Assembly (NCBI GenBank): GCA_964016885.1
Contig: OZ024742.1
Location: forward strand, 341,000,001 to 341,064,000
Direction: 5' to 3'
DNA: 64,000 nucleotides
Origin: Eledone cirrhosa
Taxonomy: Eukaryota
The notes beneath the pieces were generated by a model. It was not told the DNA's origin, made no database searches, and saw only the letters and a program-made list of their open reading frames with translations. This document shows positions 2,285 through 59,884 of this stretch, piece by piece; position 1 is the first letter of the stretch, and every line of letters starts with the position of its first letter. Made by a program: the position numbers and the translations under genes.

Positions 2285-4075
2285 TCTATTGAGTGATGAA
2301 TAACTTTTGTTTTATTTTAACATGTCTATTGAGCACTCTTATTCGATATGTGTATTTCCACATTCCCTCGAATTGTTTTCGCGGATATAGAGGTTATCTC
2401 CCTTGTCTAATGCCATATGCATTTTTCACTGGTAGTTAGCCCCTCTACCGCCAGGAAAAAAGCTCGTTGAGAAAGTAAACTCCGTTCCGCTTACTCTAGT
2501 AGGCTTTTATATTTATATGTGAGCTGATAGAGTACAGTCTAAGGATTTACAGAAACCCATGAAGCTAGATTTAACACCTGTCTAGTGGGTCCGGGTATGA
2601 TTTTACATTCATTTAAATTATTGACGTATTGTTTTATTGATATTTTTTATCTGTTTGTCCCGAATCTTCTATTATCGATTTTTTATCGTATGGTTGATTG
2701 TAGACTTGTTCTATATGTGACGGTATTTTAACGATAGTTATAGCTCTGATTCATCTGAATTATTGAGCCCTCTGCCGCTCATTTCGAATCTTGTTTATCG
2801 TGAACTCGTGCGCCGATTTTTCGATACTCGATCTTTCTAATATATTTAGCTCTGGACATAGCTATCCACCAGTTAATTTTATTGCTCATTTTTTGTCGAT
2901 TCTATTGAGTGATGAATAGCTTTTGTTTTATTTTAACATGTCTATTGAGCACTCTTATTCGATATGTGTATTTCCACATTCCCTCGAATTGTTTTCGCGG
3001 ATATAGAGGTTATCTCCCTTGTCTAATGCCATGTGCGTTTTTCACTGGTAGTTAGCCCCTCTACCGCCAGGAAAAAAGCTCGTTGAGAAAGTAAACTCCG
3101 TTCCGCTTACTCTAGTAGGCTTTTATATTTATATGTGAGCTGATAGAGTACAGTCTAAGGATTTACAGAAACCCATGAAGCTAGATTTAACACCTGTCTA
3201 GTGGGTCCGGGTATGATTTTACATTCATTTAAATTATTGACGTATTGTTTTATTGATATTTTTTATCTGTTTGTCCCGAATCTTCTATTATCGATTTTTT
3301 ATCGTATGGTTGATTGTAGACTTGTTCTATATGTGACGGTATTTTAACGATAGTTATAGCTCTGATTCATCTGAATTATTGAGCCCTCTGCCGCTCATTT
3401 CGAATCTTGTTTATCGTGAACTCGTGCGCCGATGTTTCGATACTCGATCTTTCTAATATATTTAGCTCTGGACATAGCTATCCACCAGTTAATTTTATTG
3501 CTCATTTTTTGTCGATTCTATTGAGTGATGAATAGCTTTTGTTTTATTTTAACATGTCTATTGAGCACTCTTATTCGATATGTGTATTTCCACATTCCCT
3601 CGAATTGTTTTCGCGGATATAGAGGTTATCTCCCTTGTCTAATGCCATGTGCGTTTTTCACTGGTAGTTAGCCCCTCTACCGCCAGGAAAAAAGCTCGTT
3701 GAGAAAGTAAACTCCGTTCCGCTTACTCTAGTAGGCTTTTATATTTATATGTGAGCTGATAGAGTACAGTCTAAGGATTTACAGAAACCCATGAAGCTAG
3801 ATTTAACACCTGTCTAGTGGGTCCGGGTATGATTTTACATTCATTTAAATTATTGACGTATTGTTTTATTGATATTTTTTATCTGTTTGTCCCGAATCTT
3901 CTATTATCGATTTTTTATCGTATGGTTGATTGTAGACTTGTTCTATATGTGACGGTATTTTAACGATAGTTATAGCTCTGATTCATCTGAATTATTGAGC
4001 CCTCTGCCGCTCATTTCGAATCTTGTTTATCGTGAACTCGTGCGCCGATTTTTCGATACTCGATCTTTCTAATAT
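2285..4075 (+). repeat. 616-bp tandem repeat, about 2.9 near-identical copies (family L, non-coding, structured)
   Basis: TCTATTGAGTGATGAATA at 2285, 2901 and 3517; flanked by TA tracts; relatives at 16992-17385 and 39153-39800. Confidence 0.92.
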
Positions 4076-8063: not shown

Positions 8064-8142
<79 letters not shown>

Positions 8143-8239
8143 TATTTTCATATCCATAGAGCTTGTCAACACAATACGGAAGTTGCGTTTCGCTAATTTC
8201 TACCCGCCGAAATGCGATTCTCGCTAAATTTATATTTAT

Positions 8240-10077: not shown

Positions 10078-10985
10078 TTAGATATTAGCTGTATACTTTA
10101 TGGAATATTCTGTGGAATTTATGCAAGCAGAGGAAAATAAATCAGTGCGTCTATTTATTATAGAATCTAAATTAGATATAATGGTAAATTTCTCAGATAA
10201 GCAAAGATTACACGTTCTGGATAGGGAGGCATTCAAGTAGGGAGAGGCAGAACAAACTTTCCTCCAAGAGATGTTATAGTTAATATTTTTGTCTTTCAAG
10301 GACCATATGAGTTCTGAGAGTGCCGTGTGAGTTCTTTTAAGTTGGTATCTAAAAGACGAATTGTGATTATAAAATCTCGCTTTGAAGGAGGTGGAAGTGG
10401 AACCGAAATAGGTAAAGGAATTGGTATCAGTTATAACCTTACATTCATAGACTAAGTTTTTTTCAAGACAATGGTTATTGAGAGGACATTTAGTTTTAAC
10501 AGGGCAATTACAATTGCGATTAGAGAAATTAACAGAGTTATTAATACGTGACCTAGTGTTATTTATAGGAGGAATTGGATTGGAGAAGTTATTTACGATA
10601 GGAATAATAGTTTCCTGATTTCGATTGGTATTATGAACATTCAACGAAGTTACGTTTGACGTCGTATTTGAGTTTGCAGAATCTAGCCTAGAGTTAACAA
10701 TGACGTCGGGAGTTCTACTGCTATTATTATGACACTCAGTGTTGGAAGGATGTGATTTAATATTTAATATTTTATTGTTGTGTTTAGAGATAATGTTAGA
10801 GATGTTGGAGGAGGTGGAATAGGAAAATGTTATTGTATGTTTGTTAAAGATTTTACTATAGATATGTGAGGGAGGGAAGCATTTATCTAAGGCCCTAAAA
10901 AATAGTTTAGGAATATTATTATTAATAGAGATAGAGAAAGGAGCATTATACCAGATTATATTTTTGTATCTAGGTCTTTTATTTC
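10078..10985 (-). pseudogene. PLE thumb/linker plus GIY-YIG endonuclease (5'-truncated, frame open)
   Basis: IIWYNAPF...FSYST...CNCPVKTKCPLNNHCLEKNLVYECK...YFGST...HNSSF...CNLC; the frame continues upstream of the listed ORF start. Confidence 0.85.
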
Positions 10986-11219
10986 TCTATCACCCATCAC
11001 CCATCTCTATCACCCATCTCTCCTCCTCTCTCATCCTTCCTTCTTATACTCCTCCCCCACCATTCTTTACTCTCATCTCCTCCTCTTCCTTACCCTTTCC
11101 ACCCCCCCCCCCCTCACTTTTTCCCAATATCACACATCAATCTTAAATTATTTTTCATATGTTCATTTAAAACTTCACTATTCACAAGTGTTTTTTTTAA
11201 CCTTCATATCATGTATCCC

Positions 11220-11291
11220 TATTTTATCTGATGAAAACGCAGATATCATCTCATGATGATATTTGTTTTTTGAAATGCGCATAATAAAATA
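11220..11291 (+). ncRNA. Type I hammerhead ribozyme, family A
   Basis: UAUUUUAU-CUGAUGA-[stem II ...CAGAUAUCAUC ucau GAUGAUAUUUG...]-GAAA-UGCGCA-UA-AUAAAAUA. Confidence 0.88.
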
Positions 11292-13737: not shown

Positions 13738-14308
13738 GGGTATCAAAAAATAAAAATGGTATTTATAGGTCTCTACAGGTGGTAGGAGAGGGTGGGGAGT
13801 GGGATGGGTGTAGGTCATTGGTTGATAGAGAAGGGAATTCATTAAAAGCTAATTCTACAAAGCTATAGTTTATTTTTATTTATTTATGTTTTTAGAGTAA
13901 CAAAGGCAGACAGAATTCTATAAACAGGTTCTGGATGGCATACCATTCCTTGTCATTAAGTTTCTCTTAAGCTAACAGATGTCTATAAGATCAGTGGGGG
14001 GTCAGTCATGGTCGATAGAATTAAAGAAAAGGGAGATTCTTTAAAAGCTAAAATCACTAAGTGACAAAGGTTTAGAGAATTCTGTAGACAGATTCAAAAT
14101 ACTGAGTGCATATCTTACAATTATCTTCGAACTTCTCTTAAACTAATCAACTATATGCCAGAAATCAACAGACACATTCACAAAAAAACATACTCACTCA
14201 CACACTCACGCACAACCATAAACACACATACACATACACATATACACACATAAAAACACACACACATATATATAAATATATTTATATACATACATATACA
14301 TACACACC

Positions 14309-14360
<52 letters not shown>

Positions 14361-14384
14361 CACACGCATACATATACATACACA

Positions 14385-15571
14385 CGGCTGAAATTAGCGA
14401 CCTTGTGGGCCTGTACATCCTACATAACCTGAAGAACCTCTTTACCGGCCTAACGGGAGGTTTATACCGAGACGACGGCCTCTTCGCCAGGCATAAGGTT
14501 AACCCCAGAACCACCGATGGGTTTCGGAAAAACTTAAGCTCTTTCTTCTCTAATCTAGGATTTAGTATAACTATAGATTCTAATTTGACTAGGGCCAACT
14601 TCTTAGATGTCACTCTCGACCTAGATACTTCCCTCTATTACCCGTACCACAAACCTAACGAGTCCCTTAAATATATTAATGTTAATTCAAACCACCCCCA
14701 AAACATCACTGATAACCTAGTAAAAAGCGTCTCTATTAGAATATCTGGCCTCTCCGCCAACAAAGATATTTTTAATGCATCTGCCTCCTACTACAATGAC
14801 GCCCTCGCCCGTAGCGGATTTAAAGATAAGATAACTTACCTAGAAACCACCGCAAGATTGCAGAGGAGGAATAGACATAGGCAGATTAGCTGGTACAACC
14901 CTCCCTTCAATAGAGAGGTATCTACTCCGATAGCTAGGATTTTCTTCACTTTACTGAAATTACACTTCCCCATACAACATAGGTACCACACCATCTTTAA
15001 TAAGAACACAATAAGACTGTCTTACTCCACCACACCTAACCTAGCTAGGAATATAGCCAACCACAATTCTAAAAAATTAAATAAGCCAACCACCTCCGAA
15101 ACCAATCCCCGGACTGGGGCTCTATGTAATTGCCTAAATAAGGAAGCATGCCCACTTGAAAACAAATGCCTCACAAATGACATCGTATACAAATGCGATG
15201 TCATCTCAGGCACCGAGGATTGCAAAAAAACTTACATCGGCATGACCTCCACCAACTTTAAGACCCGTTGGTATGCCCATACCCACTCCTTCAGAAGACC
15301 GGATAAATCAAATCAGACAACACTCGCCTCCTACGATTGGGACCTCAAAAGGAACTCCACCCCCTTCACGCTTAAATGGAAAATACTCCAGAAAGCGCGC
15401 TCTTACAACGGAGGACAAAAGGGCTGCGACCTTTGTATTTCAGAGAGCTACGAAATTTTATTCGCCAAGGGCCCGCTACTGAACAAACTCTCTGAACACT
15501 GCCCGAACTGCATGCACAAGAACTTTGCAACTTTCAAACACTTTAAGCCAGTGTTAAAGCCCGATGGCTAA
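14385..15571 (+). CDS. PLE RT (C-terminal half) plus GIY-YIG endonuclease; 5'-truncated but uninterrupted; resembles the Hydra clade
   Basis: AEISDLVG, LYRDDG, NFLDV, YHKPN, WYNPPF, CNC-x4-CPL, IVY...YIG, HTHSF, CDLC, CMH. Confidence 0.9.
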
Positions 15572-15719
15572 CAACGACCTCCCCTTATTGGCCCCTATAC
15601 CTCCTCACCACCCTACCCCCACCCCTCCTCAACCTGAAATATTGCCTCTATGGTTATGTGAGTACCTCTTTCGTATCTACATTTTCTGCCTGTAGAGGTG
15701 TTTTTATGTGCCTGCGTAT

Positions 15720-16991
<1,272 letters not shown>

Positions 16992-16992
<1 letters not shown>

Positions 16993-17376
16993 CGCCAGGA
17001 AAAAACTCGTTGACAACGTAAACTCCGTTCCACTTATTCTAGTAGGCTTTTATATTTATATGTGAGCTGATAGAGTACAGTCTAAGGATTTACAGAAACC
17101 CATGAAGCTAGATTTAACACCTTTCTAGTGGGTCCGGGTATGATTTTACATTCATTTAAATTATTGACGTATTGTTTTATTGATATTTTTTATCTGTTTG
17201 GCCCGAATCTTCCTTTATCGATTTTAAATCGTATGGTTGATTGTAGACTTGTTCTATATGTGACGGTATTTTAACGATAGTTATAGCTCTGATTCATCTG
17301 AATTATTGAGCCCTCTGCCGCTCATATCGAATTTCGTTTTTCGTGAACTCGTGCGCCGATTTTTCGATACTCGATC

Positions 17377-17385
<9 letters not shown>
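16992..17385 (+). repeat. Partial copy of the family L 616-bp unit, nested in PLE C
   Basis: Near-identical to about 2448-2845. Confidence 0.9.
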
Positions 17386-17419
<34 letters not shown>

Positions 17420-20575: not shown

Positions 20576-23498
20576 CTATAGTCTGATGTAGAGTGAAGGC
20601 CCATTCACACGGGCCATTCTCGCCACTTTCACCCATCTTTCATAAAAACGGCTGGGGTGCAGCACCTCTCTCTCCATCCTGATCCTTCTTCCGAAATGAT
20701 ATCGGAAGAAACGGACCAGTTGTTGGCCAGAGAGAAAGGTGTCTGACCTCAGTCCTTTCAGACGCGTCCACCATACAACCTCTTTCGCCATGGCTATTAC
20801 GCACAGAAACACCGCCTCTCCTTCGTTTTTGAAGAGGGGAGGCGGCTTGATCGTTACAATAGACTCGGTGGTCAACCGGATCGGTCCCACCCTTGACAGC
20901 AGTTGTTCGACATAGCCCCACAGATCAGCAATGCCCGAGCAGTGTACCAATGCGTGTGCAATGGTTTCCTCGTCACACACGCATCTGGGACAGATCTTTT
21001 TCGAGGGGTCCCTACCCGGGCGCCGGTGTCTCTATAGCCTTTCTCGAACGAGCAGAGCCCTTCTGTAGCACTGCCAGGCCAGGGACCTCTGGAAGTTATC
21101 CATGGGTCCCGGGCTGAATGTCCTACCGAACATGTTGGCCAGTTCGTCTTCCTCCATGCCTAGGGTTCTCCGAGGGCGTCGTCGCACCTGCTAACCACCA
21201 GCCCTCTATAGAATGACGAGGTGGATTCTCCATTGACAGTCAGGTCCGTCTGCTAGAGAGCCGTGAGCGCCTGGGCACACTCGGTGTGCCAGACGCCCAG
21301 TTTTGTCGGTCTTTGCTTGACCCAGGATTGCAGCTCGGTGAGTGAGACGAGTCTGGGAAAGGCTCGCCTCACAAACGTGGCCCACACCGGTTGACCGGAG
21401 AGGAATACCTGGAGGTGCCGTAGCCTTAATGCGTGTTTACCTATCATTAGCCACGGCATCCCCAGCCCTCCTTTCGAAGGGTGTTGACAGCAGATGGATC
21501 TCCTCACCATAGGAGCCCGCTTCTTCCAAAGGAATTGGAAGAGTACGCGCTCCATTTTGGCGAGCGTTTCCCTTGGGCAAGGCACAACGGTCAGGCGGTA
21601 GTAGATGACGGACGATATATAAGTGTTCGCCACCTCCGCTGTGCATGGCATTGATCCAGCCCCTGAAAACGGGTCCGAAGCCTGCCGCCGCTAGCACCGC
21701 ATCCAGGTAACCATGGTCGACCCTATCGAATGCCTTAGATTGATCCAAGTTGATCAGGGCCCCACCAAAGCCGGGTTCGTTCCCAACCCTCTCTATGATG
21801 TATCGCATGAGGTGGAGGTTGTCGTGGATGGACCTGGACGGGATAGCACATGTCTGCGCATCTCCCACCAGGTTGCCCACGACAAGCGCCAACCTCTTTG
21901 CTAGCACCTTGGCCCAAATCTGTAACTCTGTATTTAGTTATGGGCCTGAAATTATTTATATCGTCCCCTTTGTTCTCGTCCTTCCTCACTAGCGTGACTA
22001 CGCCCTTGGTCACAGCACAGGGAATTCTCCCGTTCTGTTGCCAGTTTCAGTAGACCGCCTTGAGGATATCGGGGAACAAGTCCGGCATAGCTAGATATAG
22101 TTCGTATGGAAGACCATCGAGACCCGGGGATTTGCGTTTGCCGCATTGGCTCAGCACGTCCTCTATCTCAGCGGCTGAAATCGGCTCCTCGCAGGACTTC
22201 ACCTCCCTGTCCGAGAGAAGCGGCAGGCCGTCGAGGTATGGACCGAAGTCCACATCCCCAACCGGCTCCCCGCCCCTTCCGAACAATCCGGCAAAGTGCT
22301 TTTGAGAAGCCTCGCACATCTGCTTGGGTTCAAGGATCACCCGTCCATCCTGGTCTCGCAAAGACCGGATAGTGGATCTGCTCCCTCTTTTGGCTTCTGT
22401 CACGCGGGCCCAGCTAACAGCTTTGGTCCCCTCGTTTCCCAGAGCACGTATTTTGCTTCGGACGATGCAGCCTTCGTGTTTCGCGTCGAAGAACTGGCCC
22501 AGGGCCGTTCTCGACGCTAGCACTCTGGCCACGTCGCCGCTTCTAATTGCCTCTTATACACTATCTACCAACTCCCTTTCCTTCCTATTTCTATTTGAGG
22601 CTAACTCCTTACTAAACTCTATAGAGACTACTCTAATCTCTCTTTTGAGAGATCCCCACCACCTGCTGTTGACGATGGCGCCCGTCAAGCGCTCCTTAAC
22701 TAAAGTGCTAATCCGGTCCCTGTAAGCCTTACTTGCCGGTAAGGACAAGTTGAGCTTCCAGTAACCGGGTCCCTGTCAATGAGTTCGTTCAAGGTTGACC
22801 ATGCAGATCACTAACTTGTGGTCTGTATAGCCAACCATGCGCATTTTTGGACAACTTAAAAAGTCCTTATCCTTAATTCTAACTAAGAACCTATCTAGGT
22901 ACGACCTAGATGATCCGCTACGATTTGCCCAAGTCCAGGTTGGCGCAGTCGGAAAATCTAGTCGATATCTATCGGCCAGATCAAATCGACCGATTAACCC
23001 TTTGAGGCTATTACACACCTCTCTATCGGGACAGGCCCCTACGTAGTCCCAGCGTGCATCTAGGATACCATTCCAGTTCCCCACTAATAGCAAGGAGCGG
23101 GACGTCCCTAGAAAAGTCTCCAGACGATGGAAGAAGTCCGGCCGCATTGACCCGAAAGGGCCGTATGCGGCTACCAACCTAAACGCTCCGCCTTCACCAC
23201 TGCCAAGGTCCAGAACCACTAGACGACCCTCCGGGTCCAAATGTACCATCTGTGTTGCGAGACCCAGATGTTTTTGCAGCAGAACGACAACCCCACCCCC
23301 ACCTCCGGGCTGACAGAGAGATGCGTGCATCTCAAAGTCATCAAAGGTGGGGGCCAGCTGTCGCACGTTGCTGATCCGGGCCTCGCAAATAACCATCACA
23401 TCTATACGTTGTGACATGAGGTCATTTAGAAGCATTGCTTGCTTCCAAGTTGAGCCCAGGCCACGCGCATTTAAACAGCCTACTCTTAGCATAGCCAT
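20576..23498 (-). pseudogene. LINE ORF2: APE endonuclease, RT and C-terminal CCHC; frameshifted, RT core partly deleted
   Basis: CLNARGL, GNWN, SYLDRF, TDH; KSPGLDGLPYELY, NFRPIT, LDQSKAFDRVDH; EETIAHALVHC; the QG/YADD region is missing near 21640. Confidence 0.9.
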
Positions 23499-23522
23499 GT
23501 TGGTGGTGAAGAGAAAAGGCAC

Positions 23523-25284
23523 TTACCTCTCTGCGTCCCGGGTATCGGGATGCACAATTTCCATTAGGGTGAGGGATGGGTTGTTGGGTGGGGTGGTGGT
23601 TTGTGGAAGTGTAGGGGCATCAGTGTGTTGTGTGGTTGGGGTGTTTGGAGTTGTGTGGGTGTTTGGGGAGGGGGTGGGGTAGTTTTTTAGAAGGACGCGG
23701 TTAATGGGCCCGACGCAGGGGGGACTCACGTCCTTTTTAAAGTTGTTTTTTAAAGTTTTATAAGTGTCCTGTGGGGGCTTTAATCATTTTGAGGTGGGGG
23801 AAATCCCCTGCCTGGGTGAAGTTAGGCCCTTGGGTTTTTATTGTATTGTTGTTGTACACAATGTTTAACAGTTTTTTGTTTCTTGTGTTTATGTATGTGT
23901 ATGCCTGTTTTTGTTTTTGTGTGGTGTTTTTTGTATGCTGTTGTTGTGAGCTCTTTTGTGTTGGTGTCAGTGTTATGTTTTGGGGAGGGGTTGTTTTCAT
24001 TTGTGTGTCTGAAGTGTGTTTTCTTTTTTTTCTTTTGATTGTGTGGAAGTGCTCCTCCTCGTCTGACGACGAACTAGGGTCATCTTCCGCGTTGGAGGGG
24101 AGGGGTATATTTTCGGGTTGTGTTTGCGTTGCGGGTGTTTTGGAAATTGTTTTTTTTTTTTAGTGGGGAGGATGGGTTGGACATTGTTTTGTTTTGGTTT
24201 GAGCTGTGGTTGTTGTTTTTGTAGTGGTAGTTGTGGTGATTGTGTTGGTTGTGCAGTTATTGGTGGTGTAGGCAGGATTGGAGTTTTCTTAATAAGTTGG
24301 GGACAGACAGCCCTCAGGTGACCTCTGGTTCCGCAGAGGTAACACGAGGGCCGCCTACCCTCAACGATAATGTTGATGAAAGTTTGATCATCCAGTATAA
24401 CGCGTTCAGGGATCTTGGCGATCCTTTCGGGCCTCATTTGAACTACAAGTTCGAGGCTCGTTCCACTGAACGCGTCACCCGATGCCTTTTCCATGGACAC
24501 CAGCGTGTCATCATCCAGGTTCAGGAAACCTGTCAAAACCCACCATATGTCCATAATCGGCAGGATGGTGTGGATTTTTATTTTTTGTGTTCTACCCATG
24601 TACGTAGGGTAGAAGGTGTATGCGGTGGATGTGATTGGTTTGATGGACAGTTTCACTGCTGTGTCCCTGTCCTTCATGAGAATGGATAGACTCCCGTAGA
24701 GTCTATCCTTCTGAATGTCCTTCATGACGTCTTTTAAAACCAGCTCTATCTAACTCTGTGATGGTTGAGCTGGTTTTTTGCTTTTATTCGAGATTGTCCT
24801 AAACATGACAGTGTTTAGGAGTCTCTGGCTTTTTAGTTCCGGGGGGGAATGGATCTTGAATGAACCATTTTCCCCGTACACTATATATTTTTTGGCATCT
24901 GCCAATAGCTCCTTCGCTTTGGTTATATCTACTGGCAGATAGTCGAGGGTTTTCCTTGCCGTCTGGGCGTAGGAGACCCTTTCCCTGCTTGTGCTGCTGT
25001 TGTTGTTCGTGGTGTTGTTGCTATCATTGTTGTTGTTATCACGGTTATTGGTCTTGTTGTTGTTGTTATTGTTATTGGTGTTGTTTTCGTCCGTCGCATT
25101 GTTGTTGTTGTTGTAGCTCCATCTGCTGACCGACAACGTCAAGTTGTCGGTCAGCAGATGGAGAAAATCCTTCCTCTGGCTGACCTTTGCTTTTGACCTC
25201 TGCTACTGTGACAGTGACAGGGGGCAGCTGTAAGTTTATCTTCCCCTTTCCTCCTTCGAATTTTGGTGAAGAAGCTTCAGCCAT
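23523..25284 (-). pseudogene. LINE ORF1 (gag-like, single zinc knuckle), disrupted
   Basis: SYAQTAR, VEGRRPSCYLCGTRGHLRAVCP, Pro/Thr/Gln-rich tail; split over several frames. Confidence 0.8.
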
Positions 25285-35698: not shown

Positions 35699-36970
35699 CA
35701 GGGGTTGGACAAAATAATGGAAACACCTTAAAATTTCAAACAAATTTATTTTAATATGGTGTAGGACCACCTTTGGCAGTAATTACAGTTTGAATTCTAC
35801 GAGGTATGGACTCCTACAAAGTTTGAATTGTTTCCAAAGGAATTTTTGTCCATTCTTCAGCTAAAGCAGTCTCCGGTTCTTGTAGTGATGATGGTGGAGG
35901 ATATTGACTCCTTACTTGTTTTTCTAAAATGCACCATAAATGTTCAATAATATTGAGATCTGGGGACGCTGGTGTCCAGATAAGATGTTCAACTTCACTA
36001 GAATGTTCCTCGTGCCATTCAGTAACAACTTTAGCTGTGTGAATTGGTGCATTTCATCCTGAAAGATTGCGTTTCCCTCCGGAAACATTTCCGCAACCAT
36101 AGGATGAATTTGATCAGATAAAATGCATAAATAGTCTTGACTATTAATTCTGCCATGAAGGGAAACAATTGGGCCGGCGGATTTCCAAGATATAGCCCCG
36201 CCAGATCATCACAGATCCTCCTCCATGTTTAACAGTTGGAAGAAGCCAGTCTGGGTCAAATGCTTCTTTTGGCTGTCTCCACACGTATACTCGGCCAGTG
36301 GTTGGAAATAAGGTAAAGGATGACTTGTCCGAGAAAATAGCATCTTCCACTGCTCTAGGGACCAATTATGTAGGTTTTTTACTCCACTCTGAACGCTTTG
36401 CAACGTTTGTTTTTGAAAGTAGTGGTTTTCTGATTGCAGCCCTCCCGTGAAATCCGGCTTTGTGCAGCTCCCGGCGAACAGTTTTTGTGGAAACTGGGTT
36501 CTCGATGTGGTCATTAAGCTCTGCAGTAATTTTGGGAGCTGTACCTTTGTGATCCTTTCTAACAATTCGCGTAAGAGTCCGACGGTCCCCATCTGAAAGT
36601 TTTGGTTTTCTTCCAGAGTTTTGTTTCGACGAGGAGATTTTTCCCTCTTTCTCAAAGGCTGTCATTACTTTCGAGACAGTACTTCTTGATACACCAAACA
36701 TTTTGGCTGTTTTCGTTACGCTAGCGCCTGCCATACGAGCACCAACAATTTGACCTCTTTGAAAGTCCGATAGATCTGTCATTTTAATGAATTTTAATTG
36801 CCTTTTTCTGATGATATCTGAAAAGAAACAGCAATTTTAACAAAACATATTAATCAATACTAATAATAAATCAAAAAACATAAAAATAAACAAGCTTTGA
36901 AGGTTTTATAGATATTTCAAAATTATGATGCTATGATTCTAGGTGTTTCCATTATTTTGTCCAACACCTG
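35699..36970 (-). mobile_element. Tc1-family DNA transposon, second copy, frameshifted
   Basis: Same TIRs as 11891-13168; transposase pieces at 36366-36782 and 36144-36365 (FSDKS, TVKHGGGSVMIW). Confidence 0.95.
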
Positions 36971-38867: not shown

Positions 38868-38898
38868 AATATGCGGGTAGAAAAAACGAAATTAAACG

Positions 38899-38946
<48 letters not shown>

Positions 38947-39003
38947 CGTTTCGTTTCGCTTTTCTACGCGCCGGAATGCGATTCTCAGTGAATTTTATAT
39001 TTC

Positions 39004-39152: not shown

Positions 39153-39800
39153 CTCGGAGGTTGCTTTTCGTTATTTCGTGGGCCGAAATGCGATTCTCGA
39201 TAATTTTTGTTTGTATTTATCTCCAGACTCTAGCTATTGACCAGTTAATTTTCTTGATTTTTTAGTTGATTCTATTGACTGATGAATAGCTTATGTTAAT
39301 TTTAACCCTTCTGTTGAGAAGTCTATTTGATTTGTGATGTTTTTGCATTCTTGCAATAACATACACAACTGAATTCATTCGCCTGATATAGGGTCTGCCT
39401 CCCTTGCCGATCCCCACGTGGGGTCAGTAATAGTCAGTCCTTGTATTAACATTGAACTAAAACCTGTTGAGAAAGTGGCTTCCTTGTTCAATCATCTTAC
39501 CAGAAGCCTAACATTATTTATGTAAGAGGACAGTGTTTGATTTAGGAGGCGCAGAACCCAAATACTGGAATTTACCAACCTTCCAGGGGTCCGGGTAAAT
39601 TTTCAATCACAGATATTTTTTATTTGTTTGACCTGAATTACTTGATCGTTTTTTTGGGCTATGCGAATGTTTGTTTAACAGTGTTTTTGGCCTTTAACGT
39701 TTGTTATAGCTCTGGTTCATCTGAATCATTGAGCACTTGCCACACATCTCGGAGGTTGTTTTTCGTTATTACGTGGGCCGAAATGCGATTCTCGATAATT
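39153..39800 (+). repeat. Diverged family L unit (595-bp period, circularly permuted relative to the 2285 array)
   Basis: CTCGGAGGTTG...CCGAAATGCGATTCTCGATAATTT at 39153 and 39748; colinear motifs shared with the 616-bp unit. Confidence 0.8.
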
Positions 39801-49734: not shown

Positions 49735-50670
49735 AATGAATTTAATCTAAATCAAAATTATGGGTGTCATACCAGAAAGACATGCGCCATATCACCCGCA
49801 AAATAAGCTCTAAGATTCTAACGAGTAGGTCCGAGCATTTTATAATAACTAGAGATTGATTAACATATAAATAAACATGAATAATCACAGGAGATAATTT
49901 TTACAAGTGTGTAACCACACATAGCTAGGTAGGTAACTAAATAAAGTTGACCAGAACTTCAAAAATAGATACCTTATAATATGATTAATCTTCCCTGTAT
50001 ATATTCCATTAAAGAAATATATTTCACCAATTAATCAGATGGTAAACCACAGAAGTTGATTTGATTTGGATTAAATTCATTTGATTTATCTTAATTTTGG
50101 ATATAGATATATAAATACGGCTCCTTAATTGTAGAGCTAACTCTGTTGAAAGGACTTGACTGCTGTTTCTAGTTGTCGATAACCCTATTCACGCCACTGG
50201 GACGAAGCTAGTATGATGTGTGTATTTCAAGTAAATACAACACGTGCTGACCAGTCGCTGATTTGAACTTGATGTGTAAACACGGATTGCTGAAACATCT
50301 TCCTTGTTGAAAATCCAAGTCTCCACTTCCGTGGTTTACCATCCGATTAATTGGTGAAATATATTTTTTTAATGGAATATATACAGGGAAGATTAATCAT
50401 ATTATAAGGTATCTATTTTTGAAGTTCTGGTCAACTTTATTTAGTTGCCTAGCTAGCTATGTGTGGTTACACACTTGTAAAAATTATCTCCTGTGATTAT
50501 TCATGTTTATTTATATGTTAATCAATCTCTAGTTATTACAAAATGGTCGGACCTACTCTTTGGAAACTTAGAGCTTATTTTGCGGGTGATATGGCGCATG
50601 TCTTTCTGGCATGACACCCATAATTTTGATTTAGATTAAATTCATTTGATTTATCTTAATTTTGGATATA
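49735..50670. repeat. Inverted repeat with arms of about 320 bp and a spacer of about 270 bp
   Basis: 49735-50057 is the reverse complement of 50325-50646; about 50066-50108 is directly repeated at about 50626-50670. Confidence 0.85.
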
Positions 50671-53195: not shown

Positions 53196-53331
53196 TCATC
53201 CTTTTACGATCGTTTCTAAGATGTATATGTTTGTTGGTATGTATATCATATAGATCTATGTAAAAATATTACAAACTATCAGACGAAATATACATACCTT
53301 CACATATACATGCTGTCTTCAGAAATGATGA
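53196..53331 (-). ncRNA. Type I hammerhead with stem II region of about 100 nt, family D
   Basis: UCAUCAUUU-CUGAAGA-...AUGUAUAUG...CAUAUACAU...-GAAA-CGAUCG-UA-AAAGGAUGA. Confidence 0.75.
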
Positions 53332-54126: not shown

Positions 54127-55902
54127 TTACTGTCGCTTATTTAATAGGATATCCTTAGATTTCATGATTTCAAAAAGTTCCTGGGAACATAATCTACACT
54201 CGTATCTGTTATTTTGATAAGGGGTGGCCCTTTTGAGCACACTCCATGTCAGGTTGTAATCGATATTCTTCTTTCTATAATTATTAATTGTTTCAGCCAA
54301 GGAAGTTGTATTAGCTAATGCGGCATTTTTAAAACTATGTTTGTGGGTATTAAATCTTACTTTAAATTGGTTATACGTAGCTCCTATATATGAACAAGTG
54401 GAGTGCTTAGTGCAAATTTCACATTTATAGACTATGTTATTAATAAGACAATGTCCCTTTAATTGGCAATTTCTTTGTATTCTGCAGTTACAACCACTCG
54501 TGAATATTATATCAGAGGAGTTAGTCAAATTTGGTGTGGAATTTACTCGACTTGTTATAGGTGAAGGAGATGGTGGTTTGTGCGGTTTATTTTAGCATTA
54601 TGGTTGGTTTGATGTGTTGTTGGTATATTTGTGTTTTTTTTACATTTATATGCGTTGTACGCACTTATATTTTGCTGTATATTTTTGGTAGTGGAGTAGG
54701 AAAATTTGACAGTTGATATATTTATAATGTGATGGTATTTATGGTTTGGCGGGAAGCTTTTGTCTAGGATAGTATAAACATTTTTTTAGGGATATTATCT
54801 TTAATTTGTAGATTAAATGAATCATTATACCAAGTAACCCGTCTATTACGGTTTCGATATTGTTTTTTATATTTATACGATGTATCAGGATGTGTACTAA
54901 GAGAGTTACTATTAGTGAATTTATTATATATAGGTTTAGTTAGATTAACTGATTTAGGTGTTTTAGTCTGATTATTAGGAATTTTTTTAGTAATGTTGTT
55001 AACATATATTGGAATATTAGGATGAATGGTTTTTTGAAAGTCATTATATTTTATGTGAGAAGAGGTAGAGAAATTAAGTTTTAGGTTGGTATTTTGGGGT
55101 GTAGTGTGAGTGGCATTTAGGTGTGGGTTTTTCATTTGGTGTTTGTTGGTAATATTGGGTTGTATGTTTGAAGTATTATTGGTGCAAGGTATATAGACTA
55201 ATTTGTTTTTGTGGCCGCTTCTAGCTAAAGCTTCGTTATAAAAGGGCGCGTTTTTATCGAATACATCTTGGTTAGATGGAAGGTTAGAGATTCTGAGTGA
55301 GATATTATATGCTCGGTTTTTAAGGATATATCTAGGGTGATTGTATTGTGAGTGTATGTAATGTAAGTTTTGGTTAGGTTTATGGTAAGGTTGGTAGATA
55401 CCCGTAGATAAGTCTAAAGTTATATCTAGGAAATTGACTATTTTACTGGTGTTTTCAAATGTAATAGTGAGACTTTAATAGTCTTTGAGGAAAGTTCTAA
55501 GTTTTGTATTTTTTCAATTTCTGATAGGCTAAGGTTAGTGGAAAGAAGAAGACAGTCATCGCGATATAAACCACCTTTAAGGTGGGGAAAAGAGGAATTA
55601 ATGTTAAATAGAAGAAAGAGGCCCACAAGATCGTTAATTTGGGCAGATTCACTAGAGCCTATAGTAATGTCGAAGAGATTACTATATGTATTTCTGGTCC
55701 AGTATTCCTTCTGAAATACCAGTAGTGTTTGTCTAGCGTGCGTTATACTATTAATGTCATCCATAGTTAAGTTTGATCTATTTTTGGCAAATATCAAGGC
55801 TTTGTTCGGGAGTATGGGTGATATAGAGGAATAATAAGCATCTATATCAAATTGTAGAAATGAAGCAGATGATTTATTTCTAATATTAGTAAACCTAACC
55901 AA
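54127..55902 (-). pseudogene. PLE RT plus GIY-YIG, frameshifted
   Basis: ORF pieces 55438-55902, 54764-55135 and 54127-54528 (CNC, IVY...YIG, HKHSF, CRLC). Confidence 0.88.
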
Positions 55903-57809
55903 AACTTACATTACATACACTCACAATCCAATCACCCTAGATCTATCCTTAAAAACCTAGCATATAATATCTCACTCAGAATCTCTAACCTTTCATCTAA
56001 CCAGGATGTATTCGATAAAAACGCACCTTTATATAACGAAGCTTTAGCTAGAAGCGGCCACAAAAACAAATTAGTCTATATACCTTGCACCAATAATACT
56101 TCAAACATACAACCCAATATTACCAACAAACACCAAATGAAAAACCCACACCTAAATGCCACTCATACTACACCCCAAAATATCAACCTAAAACTTAATT
56201 TCTCTACCTCTTCTCACATAAAATATAATGACTTTCAAAAAACCATTCATCCTAATATTCCAATATATGTTAACAACATTACTAAAAAAATTCCTAATAA
56301 TCAGACTAGAACACCTAAATCAGTTAATCTAACTAAACCTATATATAATAAATTCACTAATAGTAACTCTCTTAGTAAACATCCTGATACATCGTATAAA
56401 TATAAAAAACAATATCGAAACCGTAATAGACGGGTTACTTGGTATAATGATTCATTTAATCTACAAATTAAAGATAATATCCCTAAAAAAATGTTTATAC
56501 TATCCTAGACAAAAGCTTCCCGCCAAACCATAAATACCATCACATTATAAATATATCAACAGTCAAATTTTCATACTCCACTACCAAAAATATACAGCAA
56601 AATATAAGTGCGTACAACGCATATAAATGTAAAAATAAACACAAATATACCAACAACACATTAATCCAACCATAATACTAAAATAAACCGCAACAAACCA
56701 CCATCTCCTTCACCTATAACAAGTCGAGTAAATTCCACACCAAATTTGACTAACTCCTCTGATATAATATTCACGAGTGGTTGTAACTGTAGAATCCAAA
56801 GAAATTGCCCATTAAAGGGACATTGTCTTATTAATAACATAGTCTATAAATGTGAAATTTGCACTAAGGACTCAACTTATTCATATATAGGAGCTACGTA
56901 TAACCAATTTAAAGTAAGATTTTATACCCACAAACAGTTTTTAAAATGCCGCATTAGCTAATATAACATCCTTGGCTGAAACAATTAATAATTATAGAAA
57001 GAAAAATATCGATTACAACCTGACATGGAGTGTGCTCAAAAGGGCCACCCCTTATCAAAATAACAGATACGAGTGTAGACTATGCACCCAGGAACTTTTT
57101 GAAATCATGAAATCTAAGAATATCCTATTAAATAAGCGACAGTAATTAATTATATCTTGCAATCATAGAATTAGAAGAACCTTCAAATATTATAAACCTA
57201 ATTAATACACTTATATTTTACATATTATTATAATTAGTTTTTAAATGTAGTTAACCTATAATTAGTACTTTACTACAGAGAACTTCATAATTTTATTTCC
57301 CTCTTACAGCTGTCTTTTCCTAAAATTAATACCTAAAACTATACCTCTAAATTAATTTAATTTCCTGTTATGAATCTAGATTCCTTGTAGTTTATATAAG
57401 ATTGGCATTTCTCACTCTACCCTTATCCCAAAATGTTACACTCCTTTGTTTTTAACAACACTCTTTAATAACATCAAATTCTTATTTATCACATTCATAT
57501 GAATTGATATAAATTTATCCCTATAAGTATACCTATCAATTAATTTAATTTCTTGTTATAGATCTAGATTCCTTGTGGTTTAAATAAGATTGGTATTTCT
57601 CACTAATACCCTTACCCTAAAATTATATCCCCAAAGTATTATTTTCATTCAAAACGTAAGGCTGCACTCCTCTACCCCTAAATACAATTTCTACTACTAC
57701 TATTCTATCAACTTGACCTCTAACTACTTTTCTATTGGTCAATTCAAAACCTGTTCCCAAACTGACCTTTTATATTAAATCTTTGTTGGTTTTTTTCAAT
57801 AAACAAATC

Positions 57810-58830: not shown

Positions 58831-58899
<69 letters not shown>

Positions 58900-59019
58900 T
58901 ATAGACATAGAATATTCGAAAATATTCTGTATGTTTATAATAAACATTTTGAAGACCTAATCGCTATAGAATAGAATACGTCACGTATTACAATTAGATT
59001 CTCGATAAAAGCAAGGGAA

Positions 59020-59062
59020 GTAATCTACGCGTTTCATTCTCGTAAGAAATCATCAGGACTAC
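59020..59062 (-). ncRNA. Minimal type I hammerhead, family I
   Basis: GUAGUC-CUGAUGA-uUUCU uacg AGAAu-GAAA-CGCG-UA-GAUUAC. Confidence 0.9.
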
Positions 59063-59329
59063 ATATCCAGTGCTTTTATCGAGAATGACACAGCTAGAGA
59101 CTTATAGAATACTTAGCTGTGTACAGGAACTGGTTTGAAAGAGCGGTTGCCGGTCCGGCAGAAATTAGAAATTGGAATAAATGCTCTGAAATAGCGATAT
59201 ATATGTGAATATAGACATAGAATATTCGAAAATATTCTGTATGTTTATAATAAACATTTTGAAGACCTAATCGCTATAGAATAGAATACGTCACGTATTA
59301 CAATTAGATTCTCGATAAAAGCAAGGGAA

Positions 59330-59372
59330 GTAATCTACGCGTTTCATTCTCGTAAGAAATCATCAGGACTAC
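59330..59372 (-). ncRNA. Minimal type I hammerhead, family I
   Basis: Identical to 59020-59062, 310 bp away. Confidence 0.9.
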
Positions 59373-59641
59373 ATATCCAGTGCTTTTATCGAGAATCTAA
59401 TTGTAATACGTGACGTATTCTATTCTATAGCGATTAGGTCTTCAAAATGTTTATTATAAACATACAGAATATTTTCGAATATTCTATGTCTATATTCACA
59501 TATATATCGCTATTTCAGAGCATTTATTCCAATTTCTAATTTCTGCCGGACCGGCAACCGCTCTTTCAAACCAGTTCCTGTACACAGCTAAGTATTCTAT
59601 AAGTCTCTAGCTGTGTCATTCTCGATAAAAGCACTGGATAT

Positions 59642-59684
59642 GTAGTCCTGATGATTTCTTACGAGAATGATACGCGTAGATTAC
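59642..59684 (+). ncRNA. Hammerhead, family I, inverted copy (GAAA changed to GAUA)
   Basis: Same sequence with one core substitution. Confidence 0.75.
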
Positions 59685-59837
59685 TTCCCTTGCTTTTATC
59701 GAGAATCTAATTGTAATACGTGACGTATTCTATTCTATAGCGATTAGGTCTTCAAAATGTTTATTATAAACATACAGAATATTCTCGAATATTCTATGTC
59801 TATATTCACATATATATCGCTATTTCAGAGCATTTAT

Positions 59838-59884
<47 letters not shown>

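Follow-up and report, generated by a model that had tools for sequence, protein, structure and literature searches.

The tandem array at positions 2285-4075 of the window (the whole stretch of 64,000 nucleotides analysed here, part of a 3.0-Gb genome and rich in TA microsatellites) represents a clade of repeats, termed here Family L, each unit of which holds a complete predicted type I hammerhead motif with stem II split by a 77-nt insert. Judged by its sequence, Family L fits a described group, the non-LTR retrozymes, as a large form with a variant hammerhead. It is very likely to be a retrozyme with a working variant hammerhead, be its RNA copied as a rolling circle or as a linear molecule, and we regard it as probable that this non-LTR retrozyme was copied by rolling-circle, target-primed reverse transcription into (TA)n, presumably by a Penelope-like enzyme. 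How animal retrozymes spread is still a matter of hypothesis, circle-templated tandem cDNA and local DNA amplification both having been proposed, and the clade offers testable genomic marks: a fixed priming site, 5' ends at the cut and array-specific haplotypes.

The units of the array differ from one another at 1-4 positions. The copies and derived features recognised in the window are as follows:

2285-4075 (+): family A array, 2.9 units of 616 bp, 5'-truncated, with the fixed 3' end running into a short TA-rich flank
2592-3207 (+): predicted 616-nt monomer RNA between two cuts (putative circle), deduced from the cut positions
4010-4075 (+): 3'-terminal segment with the UA-rich end, about 248 nt after the cut; putative priming site on (TA)n
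8141-8236 (+): 3'-end fragment of family C, whose unit elsewhere is about 615 nt
16993-17391 (+): 5'-truncated family A copy, a 96% identical fragment with a complete motif (U3 17010, C17 17134)
38868-38995 (no strand assigned): a pair of short 3'-end fragments from a C-like family, in head-to-head orientation across (TA)n
39153-39800 (+): family B copy, 1.1 units, core at 39467, decayed (one A of GAAA lost)

The sequence-only reading had described the 616-bp unit in 2.9 copies, a fragment near 16992 and a diverged relative at 39153-39800, all set in microsatellites, and these observations hold: the fragment corresponds to 16993-17391 at 96% identity, and TA/TG microsatellites flank the family A array, the fragment and the B relative alike. 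The fragment, which has C as the extra base after A9, sits in the microsatellite-rich 3' region of a Penelope-like element. The ORF check of the window revealed no ORF of at least 150 aa overlapping the copies, which are in this respect non-coding, as are non-LTR retrozymes. The anatomy of the arrays shows no LTR-internal-LTR layout.

The hammerhead motif is present in all three units of the window array (predicted cuts after 2591, 3207 and 3823), and its parts are distributed as follows:

2462-2466 (+): 5' strand of stem I (GCUCG), unit 1, pairing with CGGGU 2592-2596
2467-2474 (+): core strand U3 U4 G5 A6 G7 A8 A9 and one extra A
2475-2551 (+): stem II (GUAAA/UUUAC at the foot) with its branched insert, 77 nt in total, ending in an extra A before G12
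2552-2591 (+): GAAA, stem III (CCC/GGG, extended by the covarying CUAG/CUAG) and the GUC triplet, with the cut predicted after 2591
2592-2596 (+): 3' strand of stem I (CGGGU), the predicted 5' end of the cut RNA
3078-3212 (+): hammerhead motif of unit 2 (U3 3083, C17 3207)
3694-3828 (+): hammerhead motif of unit 3 (U3 3699, C17 3823)

Only a "half-hammerhead" had previously been seen at 2552-2591, preceded by a non-canonical CUGAUAGA (2525) and lacking a stem I partner. The motif is in fact complete. UUGAGAA at 2467, with U3-A8 as an already known variation, supplies the 5' side of the core, GCUCG 2462-2466 forms stem I together with CGGGU 2592-2596, and CUGAUAGA belongs to the stem II insert. 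The loss of one A of GAAA in the B copy of the window helps to explain why a comparison of two copies hid the motif. A descriptor that tolerated U3, R8, an elongated stem II and a single additional base to either side matched the window at 2467, 3083, 3699 and 17010, with one further AT-rich match at 50307, and gave no match in any of 10 shuffled windows. CUGAUGA at about 39279 in family B was rejected as a core strand because it is part of a conserved helix. Readings as a hairpin, twister, pistol, HDV-like or type II hammerhead ribozyme were dropped on a by-eye comparison with the consensus motifs. A search against Rfam gave no match at the gathering score and no ribozyme family at E<=10, only microsatellite noise.

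Three stems surround the core, with stem I open, and the core has U4 G5 A6 N7 A9, G12 A13 A14, the A15.1-U16.1 pair and an NUH triplet. Among 166 distinct motif sequences, a sample partly selected by the GAAAC...GUC half itself, positions 3 and 8 are Watson-Crick paired in 141 (125 U-A and 16 C-G, most of the latter from a search that demanded a C3-G8 core), form U-G in 23 and are mismatched (C-A) in 2, so that 164 can pair. The U3-G8 combination predominates in family A2 (21/29), and the C3-A8 mismatch occurs in two related copies (L194 and L227, of one subfamily), a relative of which (L376) has C3-G8. The G10.1-C11.1 pair is G-C in 18/18 copies, but instead of lying directly next to A9 and G12 it is separated from them by one extra base on each side (the one after A9 is C in 10/58 family A sequences), and the motif is therefore filed as a hammerhead variant. 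At the level of sequence, then, Family L appears to have the properties of a retrozyme and to depart from the canonical hammerhead in one feature, the foot of stem II; the sequence-only reading had missed the ribozyme motif.

Some of these deviations have precedents. U3-A8 is a natural variant active in vitro, and the foot of stem II can accommodate a U-U mismatch (Perreault et al. 2011, PMC3088659), while A opposite A (or C) at this place is not described in the parts of PMC3088659 available to us. We found no precedent for the extra base before G12, and no description of this hammerhead variant or of such elements, in the main texts of the papers searched. Family L shares with the hammerheads of Penelope-like pLTRs, among them the U3-A8 variant of Schistosoma Cercyon, the U3-A8 covariation, an unpaired base 5' of stem II and a short stem I (PMC4209133). 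The pLTR hammerheads are, however, minimal and dimer-acting, with little or no helix III and a helix II of 7-8 bp (PMC4209133), whereas in Family L stem III is complete, stem II is long and branched, and a second extra base precedes G12. If the variant with A opposite A and a long stem II cleaves, the known rules for the hammerhead core would be widened.

Beyond the window, the motif CAGAAACCC-N24-34-GGGTCCGGGTA has 4,873 exact matches in the genome and none for the reversed control; this figure counts units rather than loci and is a lower bound for the clade. The fragment at 8141-8236 led to family C, and the flanks of copies gave families A2 and E. Units are 604-617 nt long across the clade, and the family consensus sequences are 57-86% identical to one another. 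Since thousands of hammerhead motifs in one genome escape Rfam, existing censuses are likely undercounts. With a short-loop version of the motif 21 matches were obtained; of the 8 inspected, 7 are members of another old family, termed M, in which a canonical CUGACGA about 100 nt upstream takes part in stems I and II, at the place occupied by UUGAGAA in Family L. A search for a CUGANGA core in the same architecture returned 14 genome matches (control 0), including two members of Family L together with M and another family, N, both of which barely align to Family L outside the hammerhead motif. These old low-copy families (L257, L264-L293, L363-L375; 43 first-look candidates for M) have an extra-A, long-stem-II hammerhead with the canonical C3-G8 core and also end in TA. 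Three sequencing runs contain related DNA as contigs; the matches in a further run, X1, are mostly short and AT-rich and carry no weight as evidence. Motif scans elsewhere gave 2 metagenome and 9 viral matches, which we treated as chance: for 10 of the 11 the 140 nt upstream contain no core strand, and the remaining one (L301) is absent among the descriptor matches listed.

Conservation and covariation provide evidence of selection on the hammerhead motif. In 212 distinct copies (A 58, A2 29, B 69, E 34, C 22), a sample for which the 3' half of the motif had served in part as a selection criterion, the core agrees with the family consensus at 97-99%, as against 93-98% elsewhere, and it is more conserved than the remainder in each of the five families; position 7 is G or A depending on the family, as expected for a hammerhead. 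In a MAFFT alignment of 18 diverse copies 93.3% of the pair cells are paired, and double-sided changes affect 6 of 15 pairs (4/5 in stem II, 1/5 in stem I and the 3/8 pair), with no compensatory change in stem III. The covariation score of 0.339 compares with 0.235 in shuffles (0/500) and with at most 0.115 when the structure is slid along the alignment; the structure was named only after the families had been inspected. Two of the covarying stems noticed previously between the two versions in the window recur as family differences: CUAG/CUAG in 81/85 A units versus CUGG/CCAG in 22/35 B units (13 unmatched by the regular expression), and UGAUUC/GAAUUA in 82/85 A versus UGGUUC/GAAUCA in 21/35 B. 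The third fails, as GACU/AGUC occurs in just one of the 22 matched B copies and the other 21 have GACU/ACUC (13/35 unmatched).

The assignment of the plus strand as the RNA is borne out by the hammerhead and the fixed 3' end, both of which lie on it; folding z-scores favour the plus strand in 4/5 families and the minus strand in family C (25 shuffles each). The isolated 153-nt segment folds into the three-way junction of the hammerhead in both the MFE and the centroid structure, with a z-score of only -1.6. With 30 nt of upstream context the predicted probability of stem I is at most 0.3 in 19/20 folds, and the hammerhead fold lies above the MFE by 0-3.6 kcal/mol in families A, B, C and E and by 6-9 kcal/mol in A2. 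All five families contain GWCCCG 35-66 nt after the cut, which can pair with CGGG in place of stem I. A stem I that is seldom dominant, together with such a competitor, implies either slow cleavage or an off-switch acting after transcription, and GWCCCG may be this switch.

The ends of the insertions are asymmetric. All 21 family A arrays analysed (that of the window and 20 fetched) end at unit position 614-616 and have scattered 5' ends, and the 3' flanks listed are TA-rich; families B and C likewise combine the same fixed 3' end, about 220-250 nt after the predicted cut, with variable 5' ends. What had been taken for circular permutation is consequently 5' truncation, since A and B arrays stop at almost identical unit positions and differ only in their 5' starts. 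Truncation at the 5' side from one fixed 3' end is a mark of target-primed reverse transcription. To the 5' side, 22 of 75 ends fall within +1..+30 of the predicted cut (5.6 expected, p ~2e-8) and one falls within -30..-1 (4.3 expected); the loci were chosen by 3'-end queries of 88-96 bases, and 90 loci yielded 76 distinct 5' ends, one of which was lost at a locus edge. Terminal copies alone give 19/59 in +1..+30. The pile-up is strong in families C and B; in family A taken by itself it is weak (p 0.04-0.08). Other stretches at 70-73% AT have about one fifth of its rate, but it could instead reflect stalling of the enzyme at GC-rich stems or AT microhomology. Among terminal copies 31/59 run on across the cut (10/13 A, 11/22 B and 10/24 C), so the template must have been circular or uncut. 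Old copies have median lengths of 248 nt in B and 226 nt in C, and head-to-head inversions were found at 2 distinct loci, a pattern that matches a hallmark of Penelope-like elements (PMC8557442).

Units of one array resemble one another much more than units of different arrays: in 98 full units from 21 arrays, which were the top matches to the window unit, the average number of differing sites is 1.7 within arrays versus 13.1 between them. A distinct fixed haplotype characterises 20 of the 21 arrays, and 10 of the 21 have a fixed variant absent from the other sampled arrays. Two arrays (L127, L132) show period-3 patterns, and in five (L129, L131, L135, L138, L140) variants are common to adjacent units, which suggests exchange at the DNA level; trimeric templates or such exchange would seem to act in addition to the main process. 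One young haplotype of family A is present in 5 of 6 arrays examined, in 8-19 near-identical units with different flanks and 5' ends, although 2 of these five arrays touch assembly gaps and long identical arrays may be mis-sized by the assembler; one array of the set starts exactly at the predicted cut. The loci of this haplotype, which has C as the extra base after A9, are on C1 at 13.09, 36.02, 36.13, 44.27 and 49.83 Mb (L241, L242, L377-L383). So young a subfamily is a handle for finding the partner enzyme.

The rolling-circle history that we prefer would begin with read-through transcription of an array and one cut per unit at GUC, after which the monomer would be ligated into a circle of probably 616 nt, by RtcB if the analogy with other retrozymes applies. 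The downstream GWCCCG may then capture the CGGG of stem I, which would inactivate the ribozyme. Copying would be primed by an endonuclease nick in (TA)n, on the UA-rich segment that lies about 220-250 nt past the cut, and the enzyme would go on for anything from less than one round to about 19 rounds. Its frequent stops at the cut site would reflect either the end of a linear template or stalling at the junction. We think it unlikely that the retrozyme moves instead as linear RNA, with partly cleaved multimers copied once and the arrays later lengthened and homogenised by unequal crossover. A 5' pile-up at the cut is expected for RNA starting there, one haplotype is common to five young arrays, the adjacent-unit variants and the period-3 patterns (L127, L132) could be DNA duplication, and local amplification is discussed in preprint 10.64898/2026.07.22.740005; but the distinct fixed haplotypes of 20/21 arrays would demand homogenisation about once per insertion, and array length is greatest in the youngest arrays and short in old B and C copies, the opposite of slow local growth. 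The rolling-circle version is better supported than the linear-RNA version.

There is little to recommend the possibility that the hammerhead is a slow or dead relic recognised by the reverse transcriptase, with arrays produced in the manner of MRC1 by template jumping on uncut RNA. Head-to-tail arrays of the MRC1 type need no ribozyme (PMC8557442), stem I is rarely favoured in the longer folds, and the non-canonical features, including C3-A8 in 2 copies and U3-G8 in A2, would suit a relic; against this, the core bases are kept across families of 57-86% identity and in M and N, nearly all motif sequences (164/166) remain pairable at 3/8, and 5' ends mark the predicted cut. We give hardly any credence to the units being pLTRs of an autonomous Penelope-like element whose ORF-bearing copies escaped sampling. 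Penelope-like ORFs are frequent (57 of 377 sequences match), and pLTR hammerheads are known with U3-A8 and with an additional base 5' of stem II (PMC4209133). However, no ORF of at least 150 aa covers the window copies, arrays of up to 19 pure units exist, and no copy is joined directly to a Penelope-like ORF in the 377 sequences (a small sample relative to thousands of copies), the one near case being separated by that element's own hammerhead and a microsatellite.

The rolling-circle retrozyme reading agrees in several respects with what is known of the group. Family L has in common with animal non-LTR retrozymes the non-coding units in tandem (up to 19 per array), each bearing a type I hammerhead, the low GC content, the co-occurrence with Penelope-like elements, and the circle-templated tandem cDNA proposed for both (PMC7229834). 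Non-LTR retrozymes self-cleave, accumulate as circles and are ligated by RtcB in vitro, and their mobilisation by Penelope-like elements is put forward as a proposal (PMC7229834); preprint 10.64898/2026.07.22.740005 supports a Penelope-like origin of retrozymes and reports cleavage in 1 of 9 predicted ones and none in 8 of 9. The unit of 604-617 nt exceeds the ~170-400 nt of invertebrate retrozymes (PMC7229834), retrozyme units of 51-972 bp being on record (preprint 10.64898/2026.07.22.740005), and Family L differs from known retrozymes in its 75-80-nt stem II insert, long stem III and U3-A8 core. Neither a fixed 3' end remote from the cut nor a strict preference for (TA)n targets is described in the available portions of PMC7229834 and preprint 10.64898/2026.07.22.740005. 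Like MRC1 and the non-autonomous Chlamys/Naiad elements, Family L shows head-to-tail insertions, 5' truncation, inversions and microsatellite targets (PMC8557442). The Chlamys/Naiad clades, however, are mostly without canonical hammerheads (Craig et al. 2021, PMC8557442), whereas Family L does not share this hammerhead-less state; because its motif is present and covarying, derivation from a hammerhead-less PLE clade, considered earlier, is unsupported. The companion idea of a structured-RNA retro-parasite with a divergent self-processing motif named the right kind of element, which turns out to be a hammerhead variant in a described group and not a new class.

A bolder reading, somewhat less probable than even, is that Family L represents a distinct hammerhead subtype, overlooked by standard searches, that drives a still-active lineage; the insertions of this lineage would document how RNA circles made by the ribozyme were copied, in a target-primed rolling-circle process, into arrays of more than 10 kb. 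On this reading the subtype would be marked by an A facing an A at the base of stem II, by a branched stem II of 75-115 nt and by a core in transition from C3-G8 through U3-G8 to U3-A8.

The window itself contains Penelope-like elements, recognised by eye from RT/GIY-YIG-like ORFs and accompanied by pLTR-type hammerheads at 11222 and 48674, so that they co-occur with Family L. The ORF pieces, also identified by eye, are:

10078-10986 (-): Penelope-like RT/GIY-YIG ORF piece
14276-15571 (+): Penelope-like RT/GIY-YIG ORF piece
54127-56508 (-): Penelope-like RT/GIY-YIG ORF piece

Pfam assigned no family to 4/4 Penelope-like ORF pieces. The element at 14276-15571 was rejected as the partner, since its downstream region is a long microsatellite tract; in 30 fetched loci no Family L sequence lies downstream of it, except for the inserted fragment in the window. 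Copies of this young Penelope-like family (window 15572-16992; L091-L120) are 97-98% identical and have more than 1 kb of TA/TG microsatellite after the ORF, a complex tract that is an insertion target of other elements. The hammerheads at 11222 and 48674 are minimal, and one with a long stem II lies near 53320 on the minus strand. The tandem element at 58897-59843, with a unit of 310 nt, bears a type I hammerhead of canonical sequence (CUGAUGA ... GAAAC GCGU A), (TA)n flanks and a head-to-head inversion at 59396/59397, and by its sequence is an ordinary non-LTR retrozyme. Long perfect hairpin elements occur beside TA microsatellites at 1830-1910 and 2050-2130, and also near many of the fetched copies, and a repeat of about 490 nt, partly duplicated, is found just upstream of a family C array (L082:330-900). 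Other residents of the window are fragments of a LINE-type element at 20576-24749 (-), with an endonuclease domain (PF03372), and a Tc1-type transposase fragment at 36366-36836 (-), with PF01498.
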